Virus record (IMG/VR): IMGVR_UViG_638341086_000012
Coordinates: 1 to 18,720 of that record
Length of the DNA: 18,720 nucleotides
From: a virus
Taxonomy: Duplodnaviria; Heunggongvirae; Uroviricota; Caudoviricetes
Reading direction: 5' to 3' (one strand)
In this document: positions 1 through 17,900 of the stretch, piece by piece
Layout of the letters: every line of letters begins with the position of its first letter
Numbering within the stretch: the first letter of the stretch is position 1
Position numbers and translations under genes: made by a program
The notes under the pieces: generated by a model
What the model was told of the DNA's origin: nothing
What the model saw: the letters and a program-made list of their open reading frames with translations, nothing else
The model's database searches: none

Positions 1-141
1 TTACTGCTTACACTGTAAGAACGCCGCAAACTCCGCTCCCCAGAAGCTCATCCGTATTTCACACAGCGAACCGTGCAACATCCAGATGATGAGGATTGCC
101 GTCACGCAGAACGTGATGGCCGTAAGCGATTTTTGCGACAT
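1..141 (-). CDS. hok: Hok/Gef-family type I toxin (small membrane peptide), 46 aa, not in the ORF track because it is under 60 aa
   Basis: Minus-strand ORF from ATG at 141 to TAA at 3-1 translates to MSQKSLTAITFCVTAILIIWMLHGSLCEIRMSFWGAEFAAFLQCKQ. One N-terminal hydrophobic helix plus the SLCE(I/L) and AAF(L/M)xC signature recalled from HokA/Hok/Gef. Match is from memory, not a search. Confidence 0.7.
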   Translation of the reverse strand: MSQKSLTAITFCVTAILIIWMLHGSLCEIRMSFWGAEFAAFLQCKQ

Positions 142-331
142 AGCACTTGCTCCTTTTCCGGAGAGGCGCTAACCTTTCACTTGTCAAGGTAATGCGGTTA
201 GGGCCTCGGTTAAACAGAGATGTTTTCCGGGGCCTTTCCACATCTGGCCTTCGGGTATTCCCTCCGACCATCAGCCGAAAGGCACCCGCGCGTAATCTAT
301 CGCTTTTTTGTTGCTCCGGCAATTCTGCCTG

Positions 332-592
332 TTAATCCTGAGGTAAAGGCAAACTCATCTGATTGTTTCCCCTGTGTGAAGCTGGCAGCTCATGCCACGG
401 GATACCTTCTGAAGAGTGAACGCCGGAGGCGTGTTTCGATGTGAATTTATGGAAAGCTTCCAGTGTTGAGAAGCATACACCGCATTCCAGGTTGTTACAC
501 TGGTAATACTTTTGCCGCACGGTATTTGAATCATTTTCCGGACGACTGGTACGGATGCGGGCAGATGCGCCACAAAGCGGGCAACGGAACAT
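332..592 (-). CDS. ogr: Ogr/Delta-family zinc-finger late-gene transcriptional activator
   Basis: N-terminus MFRCPLCGASARIRTSR...YYQCNNLECGVCF parallels P2 Ogr (MFHCPLCQHAAHARTSR...CQNVNC) with the same four-Cys spacing. Lies downstream of gpD on the same strand, as in P2. Confidence 0.88.
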   Translation of the reverse strand: MFRCPLCGASARIRTSRPENDSNTVRQKYYQCNNLECGVCFSTLEAFHKFTSKHASGVHSSEGIPWHELPASHRGNNQMSLPLPQD

Positions 593-786
593 AGCGACCT
601 CCCTTAACGCAGTGCTGATGTTATTCTAGGTCGTGCTGGCTATAATTCCAACTAACACTTCGTTTTAAGCGAATAGCAGATAGTCGAGTTATCATGTTAT
701 TAGCCAATAAATATACGTGGTAAAAGCTCTTTCTTCGATTTAAAATGTATCTGGATAGTAAATATCTTACGTTAAAGGAAATTGTT

Positions 787-1107
787 ATGGATTTTTTATC
801 TTCGGCGATACTTTCTGGCATAGTTTATGACATGCTTAAACATCATGTTTCGATTACTGCAACTTCAATAAAAGAAAAGTTAAAAAATTGGGTTATTGAT
901 GAGGCTGTAGCCCCTGCTTTAGCTAAAGAGCTTGAAAAACTGTCTTTGAACGATGAAATGAGTGAAATAGCAATTGAAAGAAAACTATTGGATAGTAGTG
1001 AAATTCAAAAAATACTCTCGTCTATAAAACCTCATGCAGCAACTGTCATTATTCAAAACCATAGTGGCACTGGTGATAATATTGGTGGAAATAAAATTAC
1101 GAGGTAG
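787..1107 (+). CDS. Hypothetical small protein (about 106 aa), first gene of the AT-rich cargo operon; no recognisable family
   Basis: ORF-track frame 745..1107. ATG at 787 is preferred because AAGGA at 775-779 sits 7 nt upstream; ATG at 745 has no SD. Very AT-rich relative to flanking phage genes. C-terminal motif IQNHSGTGDNIGGNKI recurs at the N-terminus of the next gene. Confidence 0.5.
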   Translation: MDFLSSAILSGIVYDMLKHHVSITATSIKEKLKNWVIDEAVAPALAKELEKLSLNDEMSEIAIERKLLDSSEIQKILSSIKPHAATVIIQNHSGTGDNIGGNKITR

Positions 1108-1112
1108 TGTCT

Positions 1113-3905
1113 ATGGATAACATTCATAGCTGCAGTTCAATTAGTCAAAATCATACCGGAACAGGCCATAATGTTGCTGGTAACTTAATTATATACAATA
1201 GTGATAATGTTGATTATGCGACTGAGTTAGCGATTGCTGTTTTAGTCGGTTGCTGGGATGAAAAAAATAATGGTGATATTGATATAATTACAAGCCTTAT
1301 TGGCGAGTCATATGACAGTTGGATTCGAAAATTAAGAATAATTGAAGGGATGCAAGATAGTCCTTTGATTCATGAGAGAGGTTCTTGGAGTTTTAAAGAT
1401 AGAATACAATCATTTCAAACGGTATCGTCAAGATTATTCGATGATCATTTGGATTTGTTTCGGACGACTGTTGTATCCGTTTTTAAAACTATCGACCCAC
1501 AATTTGAACTGGCACCTGAAGAGCGTTATGCAGCAGTAATTTATGGGAAGGTTTTACCACACAGCCGATTAATAAGGAAAGGACTATCCGAAGGGTTGGC
1601 ATTAGTTGCAACAAAGCAAGAGTTACTTACTAATTGCTCAAAATATAAAGGGCAATATTGCGCCTCAAGTGTGGTTAAAGAGGTTTTTTCGGCTTCTAGC
1701 TGGCAATTATGGGCTAGTACGCAAGATATTCAAGTTATGCTTGCGGAAAGTGCTCCTGACTGTTTTATCGACGAAGTGGAAAATGCTGCATCTCACCAAG
1801 ACAAGCCATTTGATTCACTTTTTGCACAGGAAGGTATCGGTGGTATTTCAGGTCGGAATTATATGACAGGACTGCTATGGGCTATTGAAGGATTAGCTTG
1901 GGCGCCTAACTATTTATCTCGCTCTTTAGTAATATTAGGGGAGCTGGATAGCCATGATCCTGGTGGCAATTGGGCTAACAGGCCACTTAACTCGATAATC
2001 AACATATTGTTACCATGGCTTCCTCATACTACAGCTGATATAGATAGACGTATTGCTGCTTTCAACGCATTGGCAAGGGAGTGGCCCGATACAGCATGGC
2101 GTGTTTTAGTTCAGTTGCTACCCAACAACACGCAAGTAACATCTGGCACACATATTCCAACTTTTAGAAACTTTATTCCTAACGGTTTTAATAAAAGGCC
2201 ATCGGGTGATGAGTACCGTACTCAGATTGAAATATACACTCAATTAACAATTGAATTGGCAAGTAAATCATCATTAAGACTTGTTGATTTAGTTGAAAAT
2301 ATTGGTAGATTAGCGCCATTTAAATTCGATGATGCAATTAAACTATTGTATGATTTTTCTAAAAAAACAGATAGTGCTGAATTGAAGTTAGCGGTGTGGG
2401 AAAAATGTTTAGAAGTTTATAACAAAAACAAAAGATTCTCAGGTGCTTATTGGGCAATGCAACCAGAACAAAATGAAAAAATCAAAGATGTTTCTACAGT
2501 CTTGAAGCCCGAAAATCCTATGCTTTATAGCAAGCGACTTTTTGCACAAAACAATTACTTCCTATTTGATGAAAATGGAAACTGGCGGGACCAAGAAGAA
2601 AGGTTGACAAAAGAACGAGGGCAATCAATATACGAAATATATGCTATTAATGGTATTGATGGAGTCTTAGAATTCTCTCTATCTATTGAAAGGCCTGAGT
2701 TTGTTGGTAGTAGCCTGGTCGCAGAAGATCTAGAAATTCCTTTAGATATACTGAAAAAACTTATTGTTAGTGATATTAAAAAGGAAAATTCTCTTGCTTC
2801 TGGTTATGTACAGGCTAAAAACTACAGAGAAGGAAAATCATGGGTGTTGACAGTTATTAATGACTGGAGTGCTCAAGAAAAGATTGCTTTTTTTCTTTTG
2901 TTACCGTTTAAAAAAGAAACATGGGATGCATTAAACGCTTCATTTGATGATTTTCCTTTCGAGTATTGGAAAAATACTCTTGTTAATGCATACAGCTGTG
3001 ATTCAACGGAAGAAATTTATTTTGCTATAGACTGCTTGATTAAAGTAGACCGTCCCTTGATGGCAATAGATTGTTTATCTAAAATTTTGCATATCGATAA
3101 TTCAGTTGATAGCAGTAAGGTTGTGCTTGCTCTATTGCAATCAATTAGAACCACAGAAAATATTGAGCGATTTGATATTCACTCATTTAATGAACTTGTG
3201 AATTATATTCAAAATGATAACACTGTTTCAGATGACGACTTAGTAAAGATTGAATGGGCATACCTACCTGTAATTAACAGGGGGGCTAATGATTCGTTGC
3301 ATCCTCAAGTATTAGAGAAAAAACTTGCAAGTGAACCCAGTTTTTTTTGTGAAGTCATTCAATATGCGTATCGATCAGAATTTCAAAAAGCAAGTAAAGA
3401 ACTATCTGAAAGTGAAATAAATATTGCCAAAAACTCACTCTATTTACTTGATGATTGGAAAAAGATTCCGGGTGTTGATGCTGAAGGCAAGTTTGATGTC
3501 AATGCGTTTAATAACTGGTTTGATTTTGTCCAAACAGAATGCGAAAAGTCAGGCCATTTAGATTTTGCTTATCATAGAATTGGAAGCATATTAATTTTTA
3601 GCCCTGCAAATGACGAGCATTGGATACTTCCAGAACTGGCCGAGTTTTTGAATAGACGTGAACTTGATAAAGTGCGTACTGGTTATAAGAATGCGATAAT
3701 AAATTCGCGTGGTGTCTACATTGTTGACCCAGAAGGTAAACCGGAATTGGAGTTGGCCCAACAATATCACACTAAGTCTGATGCAATGGAACTTCTAGGC
3801 TTTCATCGATTTGCCCGAATTCTTCGAGAGTTAGCTCATGAATACCAAGCGGAAGCTGAGTTGATAATAGAACAGCACAGTAAAAAAAAGATTGCTGAGA
3901 TTTAG
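1113..3905 (+). CDS. Large hypothetical protein (about 930 aa), AT-rich cargo; candidate accessory or defence protein of unknown family
   Basis: Uninterrupted 2.8-kb ORF (track 1107..3905; ATG at 1113 preceded by GAGG at 1101-1104). No Walker A, no obvious nuclease motif seen by eye. Sits between gpD and ogr, which are normally adjacent in P2, and on the opposite strand. Confidence 0.75.
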   Translation: MDNIHSCSSISQNHTGTGHNVAGNLIIYNSDNVDYATELAIAVLVGCWDEKNNGDIDIITSLIGESYDSWIRKLRIIEGMQDSPLIHERGSWSFKDRIQSFQTVSSRLFDDHLDLFRTTVVSVFKTIDPQFELAPEERYAAVIYGKVLPHSRLIRKGLSEGLALVATKQELLTNCSKYKGQYCASSVVKEVFSASSWQLWASTQDIQVMLAESAPDCFIDEVENAASHQDKPFDSLFAQEGIGGISGRNYMTGLLWAIEGLAWAPNYLSRSLVILGELDSHDPGGNWANRPLNSIINILLPWLPHTTADIDRRIAAFNALAREWPDTAWRVLVQLLPNNTQVTSGTHIPTFRNFIPNGFNKRPSGDEYRTQIEIYTQLTIELASKSSLRLVDLVENIGRLAPFKFDDAIKLLYDFSKKTDSAELKLAVWEKCLEVYNKNKRFSGAYWAMQPEQNEKIKDVSTVLKPENPMLYSKRLFAQNNYFLFDENGNWRDQEERLTKERGQSIYEIYAINGIDGVLEFSLSIERPEFVGSSLVAEDLEIPLDILKKLIVSDIKKENSLASGYVQAKNYREGKSWVLTVINDWSAQEKIAFFLLLPFKKETWDALNASFDDFPFEYWKNTLVNAYSCDSTEEIYFAIDCLIKVDRPLMAIDCLSKILHIDNSVDSSKVVLALLQSIRTTENIERFDIHSFNELVNYIQNDNTVSDDDLVKIEWAYLPVINRGANDSLHPQVLEKKLASEPSFFCEVIQYAYRSEFQKASKELSESEINIAKNSLYLLDDWKKIPGVDAEGKFDVNAFNNWFDFVQTECEKSGHLDFAYHRIGSILIFSPANDEHWILPELAEFLNRRELDKVRTGYKNAIINSRGVYIVDPEGKPELELAQQYHTKSDAMELLGFHRFARILRELAHEYQAEAELIIEQHSKKKIAEI

Positions 3906-4029
3906 TGTAGTGCTTGTAGTTTCGGAGAAATAAATCTTTGTTTATAAACATTTATAGTAACTACTGACATTGTTGCCGATTATAATTCGTCTTGGTGTAA
4001 GGCGGGTTACACTTGGCCAATCGGTGAAA

Positions 4030-4068
4030 GGCACAGAGCAAAACTCCAATTAGGTTTGCTTCTGTGCC
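4030..4068. terminator. Hairpin in the convergent intergenic region between the cargo operon and gpD; possible bidirectional terminator
   Basis: Inverted repeat GGCACAGAGCAAA (4030-4042) and TTTGCTTCTGTGCC (4055-4068), 13-bp stem with a one-base bulge and 12-nt loop. No strong T-tract on either side. Confidence 0.3.
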
Positions 4069-4115
4069 GTACGTAAGCATGCTAGCCCGTGTCTGAACTA
4101 ATGCATCCCAGTTGC

Positions 4116-5225
4116 TCACTCTGTTTCCGCTATCCATTCCGGGATTTTTGCCTCAAGCTCAAGCTGCGTGGTAAAACCGCTGTTATCAATGGTGTGCTCG
4201 GCTTTTGCAATAATCCAGTCCTGATTATCAATCTCGCTTTTAAATCCTGTTACCGTGCCATGCATTTCGGGGTAGAGTTCTGCACGTCCACGCGCCAGCG
4301 TGATGGAGAATGATGTGGCTCCGCGTTGTAGCTGCTGCCACTTTGCCGCCGCAGCGCGTCTTGCTGCCTGCTCGTTCTGATAAGTCTTGCGTAACACAAA
4401 CACATTTCCTTCCGCGCCTTCCATATAATCACCTTCACGGCTGCTGCTTTTCTCCTTTTTGGGTTTTGGCGGTTTGCGGCGTTTCACGCTGACTTTTTTC
4501 TTTTTCCCGTAATTAAGATCAAGCCAGTAGGCGCGTACCCCCGTATACGCCTCGCGGTCAGCAATACGGAACTGATGGCGATCGCCGCTGCTGCGTGTAA
4601 TGGCGAACGAGGGCAACGGCTGGCCCTGTGCGTTCACGCCACCACCTGGCATGATGAATAACAGATTGCCGCTTTTTACGGTGGTGATTGCGCCCAGCAT
4701 TTCCGCCATGCGCGTAAGAAAGGACATGTCGCTTTCTTCGGTCTGGTCGGCGTGGTCGATTTCGATATCCATCAGCATTTCGCTGATTTGCGGTTTCAGA
4801 CCATACCGATGAGCGATGGCGGATACCACACGCTCAACGGTCACATCATGCCAGGACACCTCACGTTTAACGTTAAATTCATCCCGAAAATCTGCGCTTC
4901 TGGCTGAAACAGTCAGCCTGTCCGGCGGTCCTTCGTGAGCGATTTCATCAACAATGTAAGTGCCTTTTTCTGTCAGCGGTTCTCCTTTCCAGCCAATGAG
5001 AACCGTCAGGCGCGCGCCCCGTGGCGGTAGCTGCAACTGACCATCTGCATCATCCAGCGTGATGGTGAGCTGGTCTGCTTCAAATCCCCGGTTGTCGGTC
5101 AGTGACAGGCTCATCAGGCGCTCTGCCACGCCTGACAGCGTTTTACCCTCCGCGAGAATATCAAAATCCGGCATTTTCACGGGGTCTGTGCCCTGACTGA
5201 GCAATTGCATGGTGGTGTCGGTCAT
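4116..5225 (-). CDS. D: P2 gpD-like late control / tail protein
   Basis: Translation (MPDFDILAEGKTLSGVAERLMSLSLTDNRGFEADQLTITLDDADGQ..., RLTVSARSADFR) matches P2 gpD as recalled. Start placed at ATG 5225 (MTDTTMQ...) because GGGAGGG lies 5-6 nt upstream; the ORF-track start at 5357 is an upstream extension. Confidence 0.88.
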   Translation of the reverse strand: MTDTTMQLLSQGTDPVKMPDFDILAEGKTLSGVAERLMSLSLTDNRGFEADQLTITLDDADGQLQLPPRGARLTVLIGWKGEPLTEKGTYIVDEIAHEGPPDRLTVSARSADFRDEFNVKREVSWHDVTVERVVSAIAHRYGLKPQISEMLMDIEIDHADQTEESDMSFLTRMAEMLGAITTVKSGNLLFIMPGGGVNAQGQPLPSFAITRSSGDRHQFRIADREAYTGVRAYWLDLNYGKKKKVSVKRRKPPKPKKEKSSSREGDYMEGAEGNVFVLRKTYQNEQAARRAAAAKWQQLQRGATSFSITLARGRAELYPEMHGTVTGFKSEIDNQDWIIAKAEHTIDNSGFTTQLELEAKIPEWIAETE

Positions 5226-5382
5226 CTGTTCCCTCCCTGTGCGGCATGGTCGCATGTGCGTGCAGAGGGGGGTACTGCTTTTTGTTGTCGCCGTGGCGGG
5301 AGAATGGCGCAGGAGTGAGATTACACGCGTGGTGGGTGATGATTGTTGCCGAATCATTTAACGGATACAAGGGGCTGAAGCT

Positions 5383-11073: not shown

Positions 11074-11124
11074 CTCTTAACCTTATAACATGTGTGGTCT
11101 GAAATAATAATTAAGGAGATTTTC

Positions 11125-11697
11125 GTGCTGTCTTACTTAATGGCAATTCACTTTGTTTTATTTGGGAAGTCTACTAATTTAAAAAACTTCTGGAAACATG
11201 AAGTAATTCGGCGAAAACGTATGGATATCTGGAGGCTTTTAAGAGAGAAAAAGCAGCGTAACCGGAATTTCCTTTTCTGGTGGCGGTTGGCTAACGAAAT
11301 GTATATTAATGGTAATAAATTACATAAGAAAGCAGCCAAAAAGTTAAACAGTAAAATAATTAACAAATTTGGTTGTGAAATAGGATTGGGAGCAAATATT
11401 GGAAAAGGGTTAACAATTCCCCATCATGCTGGAATTGTTGTTCATTTTGCTGTTGATGCGGGTGAAAATCTGGTATTACGACAGAATACTACCATTGGAC
11501 AGATAGATGGTGACATGCCTGGTTCAAGAGTGAAAATTGGTAGTAACGTTGATATCGGAGCTAATTGTTGCATCATTGGATTGTCACGTAAAATTGGGGA
11601 TAATGTAAAAATAGGTGCAATGTCTTTTATAAATAAAGATATACCATCAAACTGCACATATATAACTAAAAAGAGTGGTGTTGTATTGTATAAATAG
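11125..11697 (+). CDS. Hexapeptide-repeat (left-handed beta-helix) acyl/acetyltransferase, CysE/WcaB/LacA-like; AT-rich cargo gene
   Basis: Repeated [LIV]-G-x-x-x-x hexapeptide pattern (IGLGANIGKGLTIPHHAGIVV, KIGSNVDIGANCCIIG, KIGDNVKIGAMSFI). Strongly AT-rich versus neighbours. ORF-track frame opens at 11092; GTG 11125 is chosen for its SD. Confidence 0.75.
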   Translation: MLSYLMAIHFVLFGKSTNLKNFWKHEVIRRKRMDIWRLLREKKQRNRNFLFWWRLANEMYINGNKLHKKAAKKLNSKIINKFGCEIGLGANIGKGLTIPHHAGIVVHFAVDAGENLVLRQNTTIGQIDGDMPGSRVKIGSNVDIGANCCIIGLSRKIGDNVKIGAMSFINKDIPSNCTYITKKSGVVLYK

Positions 11698-11704
11698 AGT
11701 ACAT

Positions 11705-11745
11705 AAAGCCATCGATATTTCTGTCGATGGCTTTTTCTTTTTATT
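11705..11745 (+). terminator. Rho-independent terminator after the acetyltransferase gene; the same hairpin lies just past the stop of gene G on the other strand
   Basis: Perfect 11-bp stem AAAGCCATCGA (11705-11715) / TCGATGGCTTT (11724-11734), 8-nt loop, followed by TTTTTCTTTTTATT on the plus strand. Confidence 0.65.
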
Positions 11746-12325
11746 GTGGGGCGACTGGCCACTCAACATCCGCTGCTACTGTTGTATCAACACGATTCAA
11801 CAATACCCGATATGTCTTCCATGCAGCCAGTAACGATGCCTCTTCCTCCGTCGCAATATCCAAATCTACGGCATCCTGAAGTGGCGCAATATGCTCACTG
11901 GCTACCTGCATCAGGCTGTTTTTTGTTTCTTCTGCCTCCTGTACCCGAAACAGTTTTTCTGCTTCTGCATCTTTCACCCAGGATGTGCCGTTCCACTTCT
12001 GACACTCTCCATCCGGCGACAACCAGGTAACATTTTCCGGTAACGGACCGAGTTCAGAAATAAATAACGCGTCCCCTGATGCCACGTCATAAACAGTTTT
12101 ACCCCGATGGTCTTCAACGAGATGCCACGATGCCTCATCACTGTTGAAAACAGCCACGAAGCCAGCCGGAATATCTGGTGGTGCAATATCGGTACTGTTT
12201 GCAGGCAGACCTGTATGAGGTGGAATGTATGCATCACCTTCCCCAATAAATTCATTAGTTCCGGTCAGCAGGTTATAAATTTTTATGGTCCGTGATTGTT
12301 CACTCATTCTGAAATCCATGTTCAC
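11741..12325 (-). CDS. G: Tail fibre assembly protein / chaperone (gpG/Tfa family)
   Basis: C-terminus ...[34 protein letters not shown] is the conserved Tfa C-terminal signature as recalled; about 190 aa. GTG at 12325 or ATG at 12319. Confidence 0.85.
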
Positions 12326-12327
12326 CT

Positions 12328-13230
12328 CTACTTAATATCAGAGACAGAATATTGTTTATTGAGCGTATGGGTAGGAGTACCAATAACGATGCTACTTCCG
12401 TGGCTATGTGCGCCAGAGGTGACATTACCTACGGGATTTTCTGGATTAATCCGGTGTATATGCGAACCAGGGCGAAAACGGTTATTAGCCTGATGTTGTA
12501 TCAGTACATCATCAGCCTGATGTTCAGGGTTAATACAGATTTGCCCGGAACGAGAGCAACACGTCCGATAATCGCCGCATCCAATATATTTAGTATCCGC
12601 ATAACGGCAAACGGAATTACCCGGACAGTATGCATATGTGCCAAATACTGCCGACTGGCGAGATTGTGCGTATTCCCAGTTAATTGATTCTGTTTTTTTA
12701 TTAAAGTTATCCCATGCCTGCTTCATCTGTCGGGCAACACTTTCAAACGGCACCTGACCACATCCGGCCCCCATTGCAGGGAATACCACTGTTTTTATTT
12801 TCATGTCTGTCGTTGCGTTTTTATTGTGCTGAAAGATGGCAAGCAGAGCGGCCCAGGTTGCGTTATATACAGCGTCTGTTCCGTCAATTGTCAACGGAAC
12901 ACGCATTGTTGGCGCATGTACCAGCCAGGGGTGATGATTATGCCCCGTTTCAATGACAAATGCAGAACCTACAGGCTGTTCGCCGAGATATTCACGAAGA
13001 ATATGATTCTGAACGCGGGACTGTAACTGAGTACCGAAGAATGCGGTAATGGCGGCATCAACGCCACCATCCATCAGGCCGAAACTATTTGCCGCACTTA
13101 CCATGCAGTCAAATTCTCTGATTGTTTCAAATGGCTTTCCGACAATATTCACACTATCTGCATTTGCAAATACCTGCTTAAATGCTTCAGCCATTTCTGT
13201 TACTGGTGCAGAAAGAATGAGCGTAATCAT
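12328..13230 (-). CDS. Macro-domain (ADP-ribose-binding / hydrolase fold) protein with a Cys/His-rich C-terminal extension, inserted between H and G
   Basis: Macro-domain motif blocks seen by eye: [60 protein letters not shown]-terminal 120 aa contain CPGNSVC...[16 protein letters not shown] and His-rich [11 protein letters not shown] overlaps the H stop (ATGA at 13227-13230); GAGG SD 5 nt upstream; stop 3 nt before the G start. Confidence 0.8.
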
Positions 13231-15053
13231 GCAAGCCTCACAATATAGTTAAATGCGATGTTTTTTACGGTGTTTTCTGCGTTACCCGTAGCGTTAACGG
13301 TGATGGTATGCCCGTGTGAACCTATCGCAACGGAGTGTGTGTGTGCGCCAATTCCTACCGTATGAGTGTGTGCGCCAATATTTACTGTGTGAGAGTGCCC
13401 CCCTGCGTTACTTGTTTTTCCAGTGCCAAGTCCTGAGTTATAACCAGCCGAAACACCATTACCTGCGCCAGTGTTGCCAACAGGAATATTGTGTGAATGA
13501 TCCCCGGCGCTATTCGTGGTTTTAGTGCCATGGTTAAATGAACTGGACGTCTTGGTGCCGTAGTCAAATGATGATGTGGTTTTTGTCCCCAAGTCCGTAC
13601 TGGACGCGCTGGCACTGTGGGAGTGTGATTTAATGCCGTCCTGTTCCTGAGATAATACGGCCCGACCACTGGCGGGTTTGCCCTTAATCGTCCAGCCACG
13701 CATATCAGGGATCACACCAGACGGATAAGCGACTGCAAGCAGGGGATAGACTGTTTTATCAAAAGTCTGCCCCTGCATAACGGTATAGCCTGTAGGCACT
13801 GAATCAGAAGGCCACGGTATCGCCGCACCTACCGGAAATGAATCTTGTGGCGTCCATGGTGTCCAGTCACCCGTTGAGTACTGGCTGCGGGTATAGCTTC
13901 TGGATGTGTCATACACATAGTAAATCTGTGTTATCCCGGCATTTTTAAGCACAACCAGTGTACCCGCAAAATTCTCCGGGTATTTCAGCGCTGCGCTTGT
14001 ATTGGCATTCAATGGCTGATGGTACAGCCCCGGTGTTTTGTAATTATCCAGATTCTGATTTGCACCAATCTCAATACTCTGGTCGTTAAAAATATCCTGC
14101 GATGTAACATTGACATCATTGGCTAGTGATTTGCCATTAACCTTACGTCCAGAGGGCACACGCCCGTTTGCATTGTCATTAGCGGCTTTCACCGCTTTCG
14201 GAGTCGCGGCAAGCGTTTCAGAATCACTGTTAGTGACGCTACTGAGCTGGACTATTCCTTTTCGTGCCGTCGTGGCGTCCTGTGCGGTATATTTCCCGTT
14301 AGCAAGGTCATAGGCTGCCTTTACCGCCTTTGGTGTTGCCGCCAGCGTTTCTGAATCGCTGTTGGTGGCGCTACTGAGCTGGGCTATTCCTTTTTGTGCC
14401 GTCGTGGCATCCTGAGCGGTATATTTCCCGTTAGCAAGGTCATAGGCTGTCTTGACCGCTTTCGGCGTTGCGGCCAGTGCTTCAGACGTGCTGTTAGTGG
14501 CGCTACTGAGTTGAACAAAGCCTTTTGCGGTCAGCGAGGCGTCCGGGTGACGTCGTGACTGTTCATGTTCTTTCAGTTTGTCATTCACGTAATCCACTGT
14601 GGCCATCACCATGGTGTTATCCACGGTAAGCGCCACGGTGGCAGTGCTGGATACGGTCAGAATGGTGCGAAATGTTTGTGCACGTCCGGACCCCTCGGCA
14701 ACGGTTGGTTTGTAACTTTCGGCAGTATTGCCCACCGCGATTAAATCGCCGTGCTCATCAAATACACCAATTTCCCGGATCCAGAATCCACCCGTTTCAG
14801 GAGGAATAACCAGCTCCGCAATAATGCGGTTCTGATGTGTTGCGTCCAGGATGACGCGATTAACAGTATGTCGCCACACCTCATGCACCAGACGGGTCTG
14901 CTTACTGTCTGGTGTGGGCAACGTGCCGCCACCGTCGCCCACGGCCATGTGAGTCAGGCGGACAGGATTACCATCTGGCGCGGCTGCCTGAGCTAATTTT
15001 TTGGCACCAGTATCAGTGATAATGGTTTTAAATTTACGTGTTGTGGTACTCAT
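13227..15053 (-). CDS. H: Tail fibre protein (P2 gpH-like)
   Basis: N-terminus [26 protein letters not shown]...MAVGDGGG...HEVWRH...[10 protein letters not shown] matches P2 gpH; internal [36 protein letters not shown] repeats; C-terminal HxH-rich tip ([33 protein letters not shown]) ending [11 protein letters not shown]. Confidence 0.95.
14160..14528 (-). repeat. About 2.8 tandem copies of a 132-bp (44-aa) coding repeat inside tail fibre gene H
   Basis: DNA segment containing ...ggtatatttcccgttagcaaggtcataggctg... recurs with a 132-bp offset (14286 vs 14418). Encodes KG(F/I)[40 protein letters not shown](Q/R). Confidence 0.85.

Positions 15054-16478: not shown

Positions 16479-17900
<1,422 letters not shown>

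Follow-up and report, generated by a model that had tools for sequence, protein, structure and literature searches.

What function is served by an AT-rich pair of genes lodged between gpD and ogr of a P2-like prophage? The window (the whole 18,720-nucleotide stretch of viral record IMGVR_UViG_638341086_000012 analysed here) contains such a pair, which a sequence-only reading had put forward as an undescribed accessory or anti-phage system. The comparisons described below suggest that the cassette is probably an anti-phage abortive-infection system, in which amyloid signalling, by analogy with a characterized pair, would connect an effector to a novel sensor.

A cargo segment in the ogr-D spacer

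The insertion and the features that border it are:

332–592, minus strand: ogr, late transcription activator, left flank of the insertion (Pfam Ogr_Delta, 5.1e-14)
623–651, minus strand: promoter-like site TTGGAA-17-TAGAAT, facing ogr across the left insertion boundary (consensus scan only)
629–4109, no strand: inserted AT-rich cargo segment in the ogr-D spacer (BLAST against an empty junction; GC values)
4116–5357, minus strand: gpD, tail/baseplate hub, right flank of the insertion (Pfam Phage_GPD, 4.8e-17)

Comparison by BLAST with the empty junction of L010, in which flanks 1–394 and 395–700 correspond to window positions 235–628 and 4110–4415, shows that 629–4109 was inserted precisely within the 42-bp spacer between ogr and D, in the remnant of a P2-like prophage. 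The insert is 3,481 bp long and has a GC content of 36.5%, against 51.0% and 51.6% for the remaining window, bearing out the AT-rich block that had been noted between gpD and ogr; GC values are 33–42% over approximately 600–4000 and 51–56% in the flanks. Two coupled plus-strand reading frames (106 and 930 aa) are arranged as the sequence-only reading had described, the first stopping at 1105–1107 and the next ATG lying at 1113. The small gene starts at ATG 787, with AAGGA 7 nt upstream, and ends in TAG, the mechanically called open reading frame running from 745. The large gene starts at ATG 1113, or at an alternative GTG (1107) that overlaps the upstream stop, and the two genes are tightly coupled. 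In RefSeq, gpD starts at about 5225 (369 aa), inside the 4116–5357 reading frame.

The cassette is present in seven of 5,426 complete E. coli genomes, about 1,400 of which have the same D gene and 720 of which have contiguous ogr and D. Elsewhere in E. coli the ogr-D site carries a PIN-domain, DUF3800, YecA-family or hypothetical protein, and a boundary comparison places the −35 element of the 623–651 site within a motif, TCCAACTRAC (plus strand), common to unrelated cargos at this position. The synteny comparison did not find the cassette at the ogr-D junction of most P2-like phages, as a core function would entail, and a core P2-type role is rejected on the few carriers, the contiguous junctions and the unrelated cargo at others. 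As had been suspected, a P2-like prophage here carries foreign and rare cargo at a variable site, and the evidence all favours an anti-phage function. The ogr-D junction of a widespread E. coli prophage lineage is now documented as a cargo site. The cassette DNA had no match in the INPHARED phage collection.

The carrier is a defective, tail-only E. coli prophage broken by IS3. Its tail genes, FI to U, are encoded on the plus strand, opposite to D and ogr, an arrangement that, set against the P2 gene map, makes the element not colinear with P2. The seven E. coli copies of the cassette occupy one locus and are at least 99.4% identical, which leaves little scope to see selection, and a consensus scan for promoters and terminators upstream of the small gene gave nothing convincing, with fewer sites than in shuffled sequences. 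Such a setting would suit a non-functional relic, in which intact-looking reading frames in a dead prophage are not expressed or no longer work. We regard this as improbable, however, given that both reading frames are intact in all seven genomes and that the pair is kept in Proteus, Citrobacter, Pectobacterium, Vibrio, Photobacterium and Pseudoalteromonas at 45–83% identity, with invariant motifs.

The small protein and the shared motif

Within the insertion, the following coding features are discussed:

787–1107, plus strand: small gene, 106 aa, Bab/GapS6a-family effector by sequence, with a HetE-N or 'Babybell' helical domain and a C-terminal motif (Pfam, NCBIfam and PDB profile matches)
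787–843, plus strand: N-terminal hydrophobic helix 1 (MDFLSSAILSGIVYDMLKH), a predicted membrane-targeting or pore-lining element (conserved Bab positions; hydrophobicity)
1039–1104, plus strand: C-terminal BASS11-type motif of the small protein (ATVIIQNHSGTGDNIGGNKITR; invariant residues in homologues; Bab mutants)
1113–3905, plus strand: large gene, 930 aa, candidate sensor (open reading frame; 568 homologues; PHROG 18693)
1137–1193, plus strand: N-terminal BASS11-type motif of the large protein (SISQNHTGTGHNVAGNLII), in a predicted disordered tail (motif HMM; AF2 pLDDT)
1197–3902, plus strand: all-alpha solenoid core of ~900 aa, the conserved body of the family

As judged from its sequence, the small protein is a Bab/GapS6a-family effector that keeps all functionally tested Bab residues. 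Bab/Agp from E. coli ECOR25 is an abortive-infection system with BASS11 amyloid signalling (Ibarlosa et al., bioRxiv 10.1101/2024.11.07.622273), and GAPS6 (GapS6a/GapS6b) has anti-phage activity (Mahata et al., bioRxiv 10.1101/2023.03.28.534373). The small protein contradicts the reading that both proteins fall outside recognisable families: it matches Pfam HetE-N (PF20701) at 6.8e-39 over positions 1–102 of 102 (full length), scores 136.6 bits against NCBIfam antiphage_GapS6a (NF047935; cut-off 90) and is 50% identical to Bab (Bab residues 1–83). A profile of its family matches the solved Bab structure (PDB 9H9V, E 5.9e-24), and the gene is already named gapS6a in RefSeq.

Conservation is concentrated at both ends of the protein. 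Residues D2, G11, Y14, and D15 are conserved at the same numbering as the positions at which mutation inactivates Bab, S10, G11, and Y14 are invariant in the small-protein alignment (A3), and helix 1 is the most hydrophobic stretch. At the C-terminus, Q90, H92, G94, G96, D97, N98, and G100 are invariant across 20 homologues. Three of these (Q90, D97, and N98) correspond to Bab Q92, D99, and N100, mutation of which abolishes amyloid formation and defence (bioRxiv 10.1101/2024.11.07.622273). The BASS11 motifs of both Bab and Agp have been shown to form amyloid or prion-like aggregates.

A motif of ~20 residues, missed in the sequence-only reading, occurs in both proteins, C-terminal in the small and N-terminal in the large. 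An HMM built from small-protein C-termini alone matches residues 9–27 of the large protein (E 1.9e-4 among 121 family proteins); searched against the six-frame window, it finds the large-protein N-terminus at E 5e-4, with the next best match at 2.8. An HMM of the last 22 residues of the small proteins finds residues 5–27 in 39 short-form sensors and has no match in the ~1,180-aa forms. AF2 pLDDT is below 50 over residues 1–24 of the large protein, which are predicted to be disordered. The effector motif keeps the conserved Q, D and N positions of BASS11, and the sensor motif keeps its conserved N. Effector and sensor motifs differ consistently (GDN vs GHN); in L006, both partners have GVGDNIGRDK. 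Four sensors have another N-terminal motif, QNVGNNSxAxQFGDNAQ, and each is preceded by a 64–68-aa single-TM protein ending in QKVGNNSSANQFGDNANVTI, such that motif class and small partner switch together in all four variant loci. By analogy with Bab/Agp, the motif pair is BASS11-type, and is predicted to be amyloid-forming in the present variant.

The effector family is also found paired with true GapS6b (879 bits) carrying the same GHNV-type N-terminal motif, and the N-terminal motif of the window protein resembles the N-terminus of true GapS6b, LINQVHSGVGHNVGGDQ. Together with the gapS6a annotation of the small gene, this resemblance might suggest that the cassette is canonical GAPS6 and its large protein GapS6b/Agp. 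That assignment is scarcely credible, as NF047936 (GapS6b), which gives the 879-bit score on the true partner, does not match the window protein at E up to 1, and neither do Pfam PIN-TPR-GreABC (PF20698), TPR or PIN at the same threshold. In addition, neither an alpha/beta PIN fold nor an FKBP-like GreA/B-C fold is seen in the AF2 model, and the protein has 930 aa as opposed to 1,094–1,114 aa. Membership of canonical GAPS6 is rejected on the missing GapS6b, PIN, TPR, and GreA/B-C matches.

The large protein and its relatives

Profile searches, proposed earlier along with PADLOC as a check on the pair, place the small protein in GapS6a/HetE-N, and the large protein has no Pfam or PADLOC family at E up to 1. 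In NCBIfam its sole match is to GapS6a, below threshold (E 0.59) and confined to the N-terminal motif, and a PDB sequence profile search has no matches. PHROG 18693 (unknown function) matches the large protein at 2.6e-104, 568 homologues were found, and the RefSeq label is 'hypothetical protein'; literature searches by protein accessions and PHROG identifier returned nothing. Description of the cassette as an undescribed system fails for the small protein (GapS6a/Bab, gapS6a in RefSeq) and stands for its partner: the novelty lies in the large protein, which is not GapS6b/Agp but a member of a large unannotated family.

Except for two short beta hairpins, the AF2 model of the large protein is all-alpha. 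The solenoid core has no specific solved homologue and its fold is generic; neither a Walker A or B motif nor a Pfam match to NACHT or NB-ARC was found in the protein. The solenoid family comprises 6,065 clusters at 50% identity and ranges over bacteria, at least one archaeal MAG, and prophages. The window protein is 38–45% identical to long forms from distant bacteria and the archaeal MAG, and a loop in the core, HDPGGNWANRP, is near-invariant. Such conservation is more than would be usual in a receptor for phage proteins, which evolve fast; a conserved binding partner or an activity of the solenoid itself may be involved instead.

In relatives of the large protein, the same body bears immune effector domains at its N-terminus in place of the motif. 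These include a Cap4/LmuA/Avs3-like nuclease (Foldseek E 1.9e-5, TM 0.48), a SIR2 domain of the pAgo-associated type (6.4e-122), an LmuA-like domain (2.9e-32), and TIR/bSEFIR, GT4-conflict, Metallophos, and DUF4062 domains. A weak colinear match to PADLOC PD-Lambda-4_A (Avs8) is seen in 5 of 41 family members (best E 5e-4, one model stretch). The Proteus locus lies in an integrase island beside type IV restriction enzymes, and other loci of the family lie within phage tail modules, after hsdM-hsdS, or among toxin-antitoxin genes. A scan of species-representative genomes gave four loci only, and no direct HetE-N-solenoid fusion ('Rosetta stone') was found among the representatives. The domain arrangements suggest that the sensor body behaves as an immune scaffold with exchangeable N-terminal effectors.

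A generic fold and a highly conserved core, with a loop resembling a ligand or active site, would also be expected if the large protein had a structural or metabolic role and the shared motif were a chance low-complexity resemblance. This is very unlikely, since matches of the motif HMM are confined to the extreme N-terminus of the short forms, with no other match in the window, all four variant loci switch motif class together with partner, 720 otherwise near-identical junctions lack the gene, and in relatives the same N-terminal position is taken by immune effector domains.

Another reading makes the cassette an addiction or toxin-control module, in which the large protein would restrain a small membrane toxin, or trigger it on loss, and so stabilise the prophage remnant with no response to infection. 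The cassette adjoins a hok/gef toxin gene in a decayed yet retained prophage (Rfam identifies no hok/sok-type or other RNA within or beside the cassette), and Bab alone is toxic if strongly over-expressed, while Bab/Agp on a plasmid is lethal (bioRxiv 10.1101/2024.11.07.622273). However, the large protein of Bab/Agp activates its effector and does not inhibit it (bioRxiv 10.1101/2024.11.07.622273), and an antitoxin of 930 aa would be unprecedented. In paralogues, nucleases, SIR2, and TIR are joined directly to the same body, a sensor-effector immune architecture, and the neighbourhoods are defence islands. An addiction module is thus an unlikely account of the pair.

Proposed mechanism and comparison with known systems

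The reading that we favour, and consider likely, is that of a two-gene abortive-infection anti-phage system working like Bab/Agp with a different sensor. Its sensing and oligomerisation steps, templating by amyloid, killing through the membrane, and any resistance to phage are all inferred. The 106-aa protein would be the executioner, a 'Babybell' helical domain hiding the hydrophobic N-terminal helix and followed by a BASS11 amyloid-forming tail of ~20 residues, and the 930-aa protein would be the receptor, with a disordered N-terminal BASS11 tail on the ~900-aa alpha-solenoid. Recognition of an infection cue by the solenoid, most likely a phage protein, would lead to its self-association, bringing the N-terminal tails together into a cross-beta fold. 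This fold would in turn template the tail of the small protein, freeing helix 1 to damage the inner membrane and causing cell death before the phage cycle is completed. The large protein lacks an NTPase and any domain recognisable as enzymatic or as serving oligomerisation, so the way in which sensing leads to nucleation of the motif is proposed purely by analogy.

It is an evenly balanced question whether the solenoid family as a whole is a very large, hitherto undescribed group of NTPase-free immune receptors that sense infection and signal by self-association through exchangeable N-terminal modules, and that, as NLRs and TGP proteins did, came independently to prion-like templating as a means of triggering a separate effector that forms pores. 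If so, amyloid signalling would be a general plug-in output of bacterial immunity and not a peculiarity of one system. A second, unrelated sensor with the same effector and motif would show the ~20-residue motif to be a portable connector, and the same effector with different receptors would provide a natural swap experiment on how sensing is converted to templating. The cassette would also offer a first way into the function of a family of thousands of large proteins that lack annotation, carry nuclease, SIR2, TIR, and glycosyltransferase effector domains, and so probably make up an unrecognised defence family.

Among known systems, Avs/STAND proteins, DSR2-type SIR2 proteins with helical-repeat sensors, and LmuA/Cap4 nucleases are single chains with exchangeable N-terminal effectors, as are the relatives of the large protein. 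The large protein differs in having no NTPase module, and the effector in the window is a separate protein that would be recruited via the motif. Avs8 (PD-Lambda-4_A) is a capsid-protein sensor, and the marginal similarity of a few family members to it is a lead only; membership of Avs or PD-Lambda-4 (Avs8) is rejected for the window protein, which has no PADLOC DSR or Avs match.

The NLR/Bell BASS pairs of filamentous bacteria and fungal NWD2/HET-S follow the same logic as the cassette, with adjacent receptor and effector genes. NLR/Bell pairs and the cassette alike combine a receptor bearing a short N-terminal amyloid motif with a small helical membrane-targeting effector bearing a matching C-terminal motif. 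However, the receptor in the window lacks a NACHT or NB-ARC NTPase and Walker motifs, the host is a unicellular enterobacterium, and the carrier is a prophage.

The closest comparison is with Bab/Agp, which is GAPS6. The large protein of the window differs from Agp in having no GapS6b, PIN, TPR or GreA/B-C match and an all-alpha solenoid fold, so that the RNA-polymerase-based sensing proposed for Agp cannot apply. Shared with Bab/Agp are an adjacent, co-oriented, tightly coupled gene pair carried on prophages, a small protein from the same family with the same critical residues, and BASS11 motifs at the effector C-terminus and large-protein N-terminus, including the asymmetry of D in the effector and H in the sensor.

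Insertion at the ogr-D junction

An AT-rich block (approximately 600–4000; GC 33–42% vs 51–56% in both flanks) separates ogr from the gpD gene (D). Alignment of the empty ogr-D junction of E. coli FDAARGOS_1077 (locus L010) places its left flank at window positions 235–628 and its right flank at 4110–4415, so that 629–4109 is a precise insertion in the 42-bp ogr-D spacer. GC content of the insert is 36.5%, compared with approximately 51% in the remainder of the window.

Inserted segment and flanking genes
332–592, minus strand: ogr, left flanking gene
629–4109, no strand: inserted segment, 3,481 bp, from alignment of the empty L010 junction
787–1107, plus strand: small gene, 106 aa from ATG 787, AAGGA Shine-Dalgarno 7 nt upstream
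1113–3905, plus strand: large gene, 930 aa
4116–5357, minus strand: gpD, right flanking gene

The mechanical ORF of the small gene begins at 745 and ends with a TAG stop, which is overlapped by an alternative GTG start of the large gene at 1107; the MSMDN start of some large-protein homologues fits this GTG. GC profile, junction alignment, and ORFs bear out the sequence-only reading of an AT-rich block dividing D from ogr and carrying two coupled genes on the opposite strand. Tail genes FI to U are likewise on the strand opposite to D and ogr, which breaks colinearity with the P2 gene map.

The cassette is present in seven of 5,426 complete E. coli genomes (99.4–100% identity) and the same element was found in IMG/VR; no occurrence was detected in the phage genome collection searched. 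Within the E. coli set, the adjoining D gene occurs in approximately 1,400 genomes, and an empty-junction probe is contiguous in 720 and split in the remainder. Split junctions hold unrelated single genes, encoding a PIN-domain, DUF3800, YecA-family, or 340-aa hypothetical protein. The ogr-D junction is therefore a variable cargo site of this prophage lineage with the cassette as one rare occupant, a synteny that agrees with the earlier view of it as accessory. Despite being unrelated, the cargos in loci L013–L017 and the window (610–700, 4040–4125) have short boundary motifs in common. Close to the left cargo end is TCCAACTRAC, within which lies the −35 element (TTGGAA) of a promoter-like site directed towards ogr; TCTGARYTAATAC occurs close to the right end, and TCTAAGTTG is found on both sides of the cargo in L013–L015. 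These motifs suggest cassette exchange at a defined site with ogr expression retained.

Five inspected copies of the seven are located downstream of ihfA. In the two copies examined in full, the cassette is carried by a P2-like remnant with tail genes only, truncated by IS3 in E110019. An IS3-family element (window approximately 16690–17900) interrupts the baseplate gene W region, so that only a tail remnant of the prophage is left between ihfA and btuC; an Rfam isrC match (16719–16841, plus strand, 150 bits) coincides with its start. The system adjoins the pheS-pheT(-ihfA) operon both in E. coli and in a Vibrio cyclitrophicus locus (L002), which may be coincidence or a common integration hotspot.

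Immediately past ogr, the prophage end encodes a 46-aa Hok/Gef-family membrane toxin (1–141, minus strand; Pfam HOK_GEF, 4.1e-7) that is kept in all related prophages examined; no hok/sok-type RNA was found near it by Rfam at the gathering threshold. A second variable region, between hok and host genes and outside the window (L010–L012, L015), contains TagO and a zinc-ribbon protein, a RES-family NAD+ phosphorylase, a DNA methyltransferase with Com, or a TM2-domain protein. A 300-aa protein, named "macro domain-containing protein" in RefSeq (12328–13230, minus strand), is encoded between the tail-fibre gene (13227–15053) and the tail-fibre assembly gene (11741–12325), an unusual place for a macro domain. 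The latter gene contains an Rfam IS009 match (11778–11976, minus strand, 194 bits). Between it and gpU, a "serine acetyltransferase" gene (11092–11697, plus strand) occupies the position of Z/fun cargo in P2, and is probably another moron.

Small effector and large candidate receptor

The Bab/Agp pair of E. coli ECOR25 has been characterized experimentally as an abortive-infection system. Bab (109 aa) buries a hydrophobic helix 1 inside its helical "Babybell" domain and has an amyloid motif, BASS11, at the C-terminus; in Agp (1,094 aa; TPR, GreA/B-C, PIN) BASS11 is N-terminal. T5 infection leads to Agp-dependent motif assembly, movement of Bab to the cell periphery, and membrane damage; mutations of Bab D2, G11, Y14, D15, Q92, D99, and N100 and of Agp N12 (for example, Bab G11K and N100P, Agp N12P) abolish defence, aggregation of the motif, or killing of the cell, singly or in combination (Ibarlosa et al., bioRxiv 10.1101/2024.11.07.622273). 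GAPS6, discovered independently in Vibrio mobile islands and protective in E. coli, is a pair of the same kind, formed by GapS6a and the TPR/PINc protein GapS6b (Mahata et al., bioRxiv 10.1101/2023.03.28.534373). Kaur et al. 2021 present HetE-N solely as one of the effectors in TGP systems, whose large subunits are of the Agp/GapS6b type. Literature text searches for protein accessions found nothing.

The small protein had been thought to belong to no recognizable family, a view that no longer holds. It matches Pfam HetE-N along its entire length (6.8e-39), scores 136.6 bits against NCBIfam antiphage_GapS6a (cut-off 90), and is 50% identical to Bab residues 1–83; its gene is already named gapS6a in RefSeq. 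A profile of 20 homologues matches PDB entry 9H9V ("Babybass"; E 5.9e-24). Bab residues D2, G11, Y14, and D15 are kept with identical numbering, and Q90, D97, and N98 align with Bab Q92, D99, and N100. By homology, the small protein belongs to an effector family already described.

Assignment of the large protein as a TGP protein is ruled out by the absence of TPR, PIN, and PIN-TPR-GreABC matches in Pfam and of a match to NCBIfam GapS6b (NF047936), which scores 879 bits on a genuine HetE-N partner (locus L007). From sequence, it looks as though the effector and motif unit has been joined to a different receptor body. The earlier verdict of no recognizable family stands for Pfam, NCBIfam, and PADLOC v2, where the large protein has no match, but not beyond: its sole family match is PHROG 18693 (function unknown), and a profile searched against 1.84 billion cluster representatives yielded 6,065 matches at E ≤1e-3 and 3,233 at E ≤1e-30, from Gammaproteobacteria, Deltaproteobacteria, Nitrospirae, Nitrosospira, and a Methanoperedens MAG. 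AlphaFold2, using an 83-sequence alignment, yields a confident all-α solenoid (pLDDT 88, pTM 0.63). Foldseek searches of the PDB highlight only generic HEAT/ARM proteins (exportins, CAND1; TM approximately 0.2), a PDB sequence profile search gave zero matches, and no Walker A/B motif was found. Conservation peaks at residues 200–350, where an HDPGGNWANRP loop is nearly invariant, and at 800–900, and is lowest at 350–700. The solenoid body shows more conservation than is usual in receptors of phage proteins and may therefore recognize a ligand that is itself conserved, or else guard some component of the host.

Shared motif and modular relatives

The two proteins share a motif, located in the first approximately 28 residues of the large protein (MDNIHSCSSISQNHTGTGHNVAGNLIIY) and the tail of the small protein (ATVIIQNHSGTGDNIGGNKITR). 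An HMM restricted to the final 22 columns of the small-protein alignment was searched against 121 large-family members; it matches residues 5–27 of 39 short forms (approximately 930 aa), among them the window protein and the representative of its cluster, and no form of approximately 1,180 aa. Against 332 six-frame window segments, its sole match is the large-protein N-terminus (E 5e-4; next best 2.8). In the AlphaFold2 model residues 1–24 are disordered and the rest is confidently modelled. The "GHNV" form of the motif is common to the window protein and the true GapS6b N-terminus (LINQVHSGVGHNVGGDQ), "GDN" is present in all effectors, and both partners in locus L006 have a GVGDNIGRDK variant.

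Four solenoid proteins (P0034, P0036, P0038, P0041; Vibrio, Moritella, metagenomes) display an entirely different N-terminal motif, TQSQNVGNNSxAxQFGDNAQ, and upstream of each is a 64–68-aa single-transmembrane protein that ends in QTQKVGNNSSANQFGDNANVTI and is not HetE-N. Motif class and effector type thus co-switch in 4/4 cases, covariation that clinches the predicted pairing of small and large proteins. These loci (L002, L038, L039, L040) hold a variant form of the system, in which the single-transmembrane partner is a second, minimal effector type lacking family annotation.

Most family members are approximately 1,180 aa, with an extra N-terminal domain of approximately 285 aa. Its AlphaFold2 model (pLDDT 80) resembles the nucleases LmuA (Lamassu) and Cap4 (CBASS) and the Avs3 nuclease domain (Foldseek E 1.9e-5 to 1.4e-4, TM 0.42–0.48).

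N-terminal alternatives in the large-protein family
SIR2, pAgo-associated type: PADLOC 6.4e-122
LmuA-like domain: 2.9e-32
TIR/bSEFIR
"GT4-conflict" glycosyltransferase: 4.7e-80
Calcineurin-like phosphoesterase
DUF4062
DUF4145-like module: Pfam E 0.0063, 17 bits, below the curated cut-off

Several such effector types are activated by oligomerization in other systems. As predicted from its domains, the family has an immune-sensor architecture. Genes for the long forms stand alone, either amid toxin-antitoxin pairs or immediately downstream of hsdM-hsdS, and short forms have the small partner upstream in every case. The Proteus pair, within an integrase island, has two type IV restriction enzymes as neighbours, and in two viral/metagenomic contigs the pair is inside or beside phage modules. 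In a Nitrosospira MAG (L020), a 1,248-aa SIR2-solenoid fusion directly follows type I restriction-modification hsdM and hsdS, with a DUF4238 protein upstream. Weak colinear PADLOC matches to PD-Lambda-4_A (Avs8, a capsid sensor) in 5 of 41 relatives (best E 5e-4) offer only a lead to possible similarity.

Proposed mechanism and known systems

We consider it likely that the cassette acts through the following chain. An infection cue would be sensed by the solenoid, which would self-associate; its N-terminal BASS11 tails would then nucleate a cross-β fold that templates the tail of the Bab-like small protein, freeing helix 1 to attack the membrane and abort infection. What the computations show is the homology, the shared motif with its covariation, the modularity, and the genomic context; all dynamic steps are drawn from Bab/Agp and the behavior of related effector domains.

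The effector and the BASS-type signalling logic are already known, and the larger novelty is the uncharacterized receptor family. With the cassette, amyloid signalling would gain a second natural sensor, and the cassette may provide a functional entry point to thousands of unannotated proteins, probably of defence. It presumably works in a similar way to Bab/Agp (GAPS6), but lacks the TGP large subunit by which that system is in part defined. The logic of the cassette is also that of the NLR/Bell BASS pairs; however, in contrast to these, it is without their NTPase.
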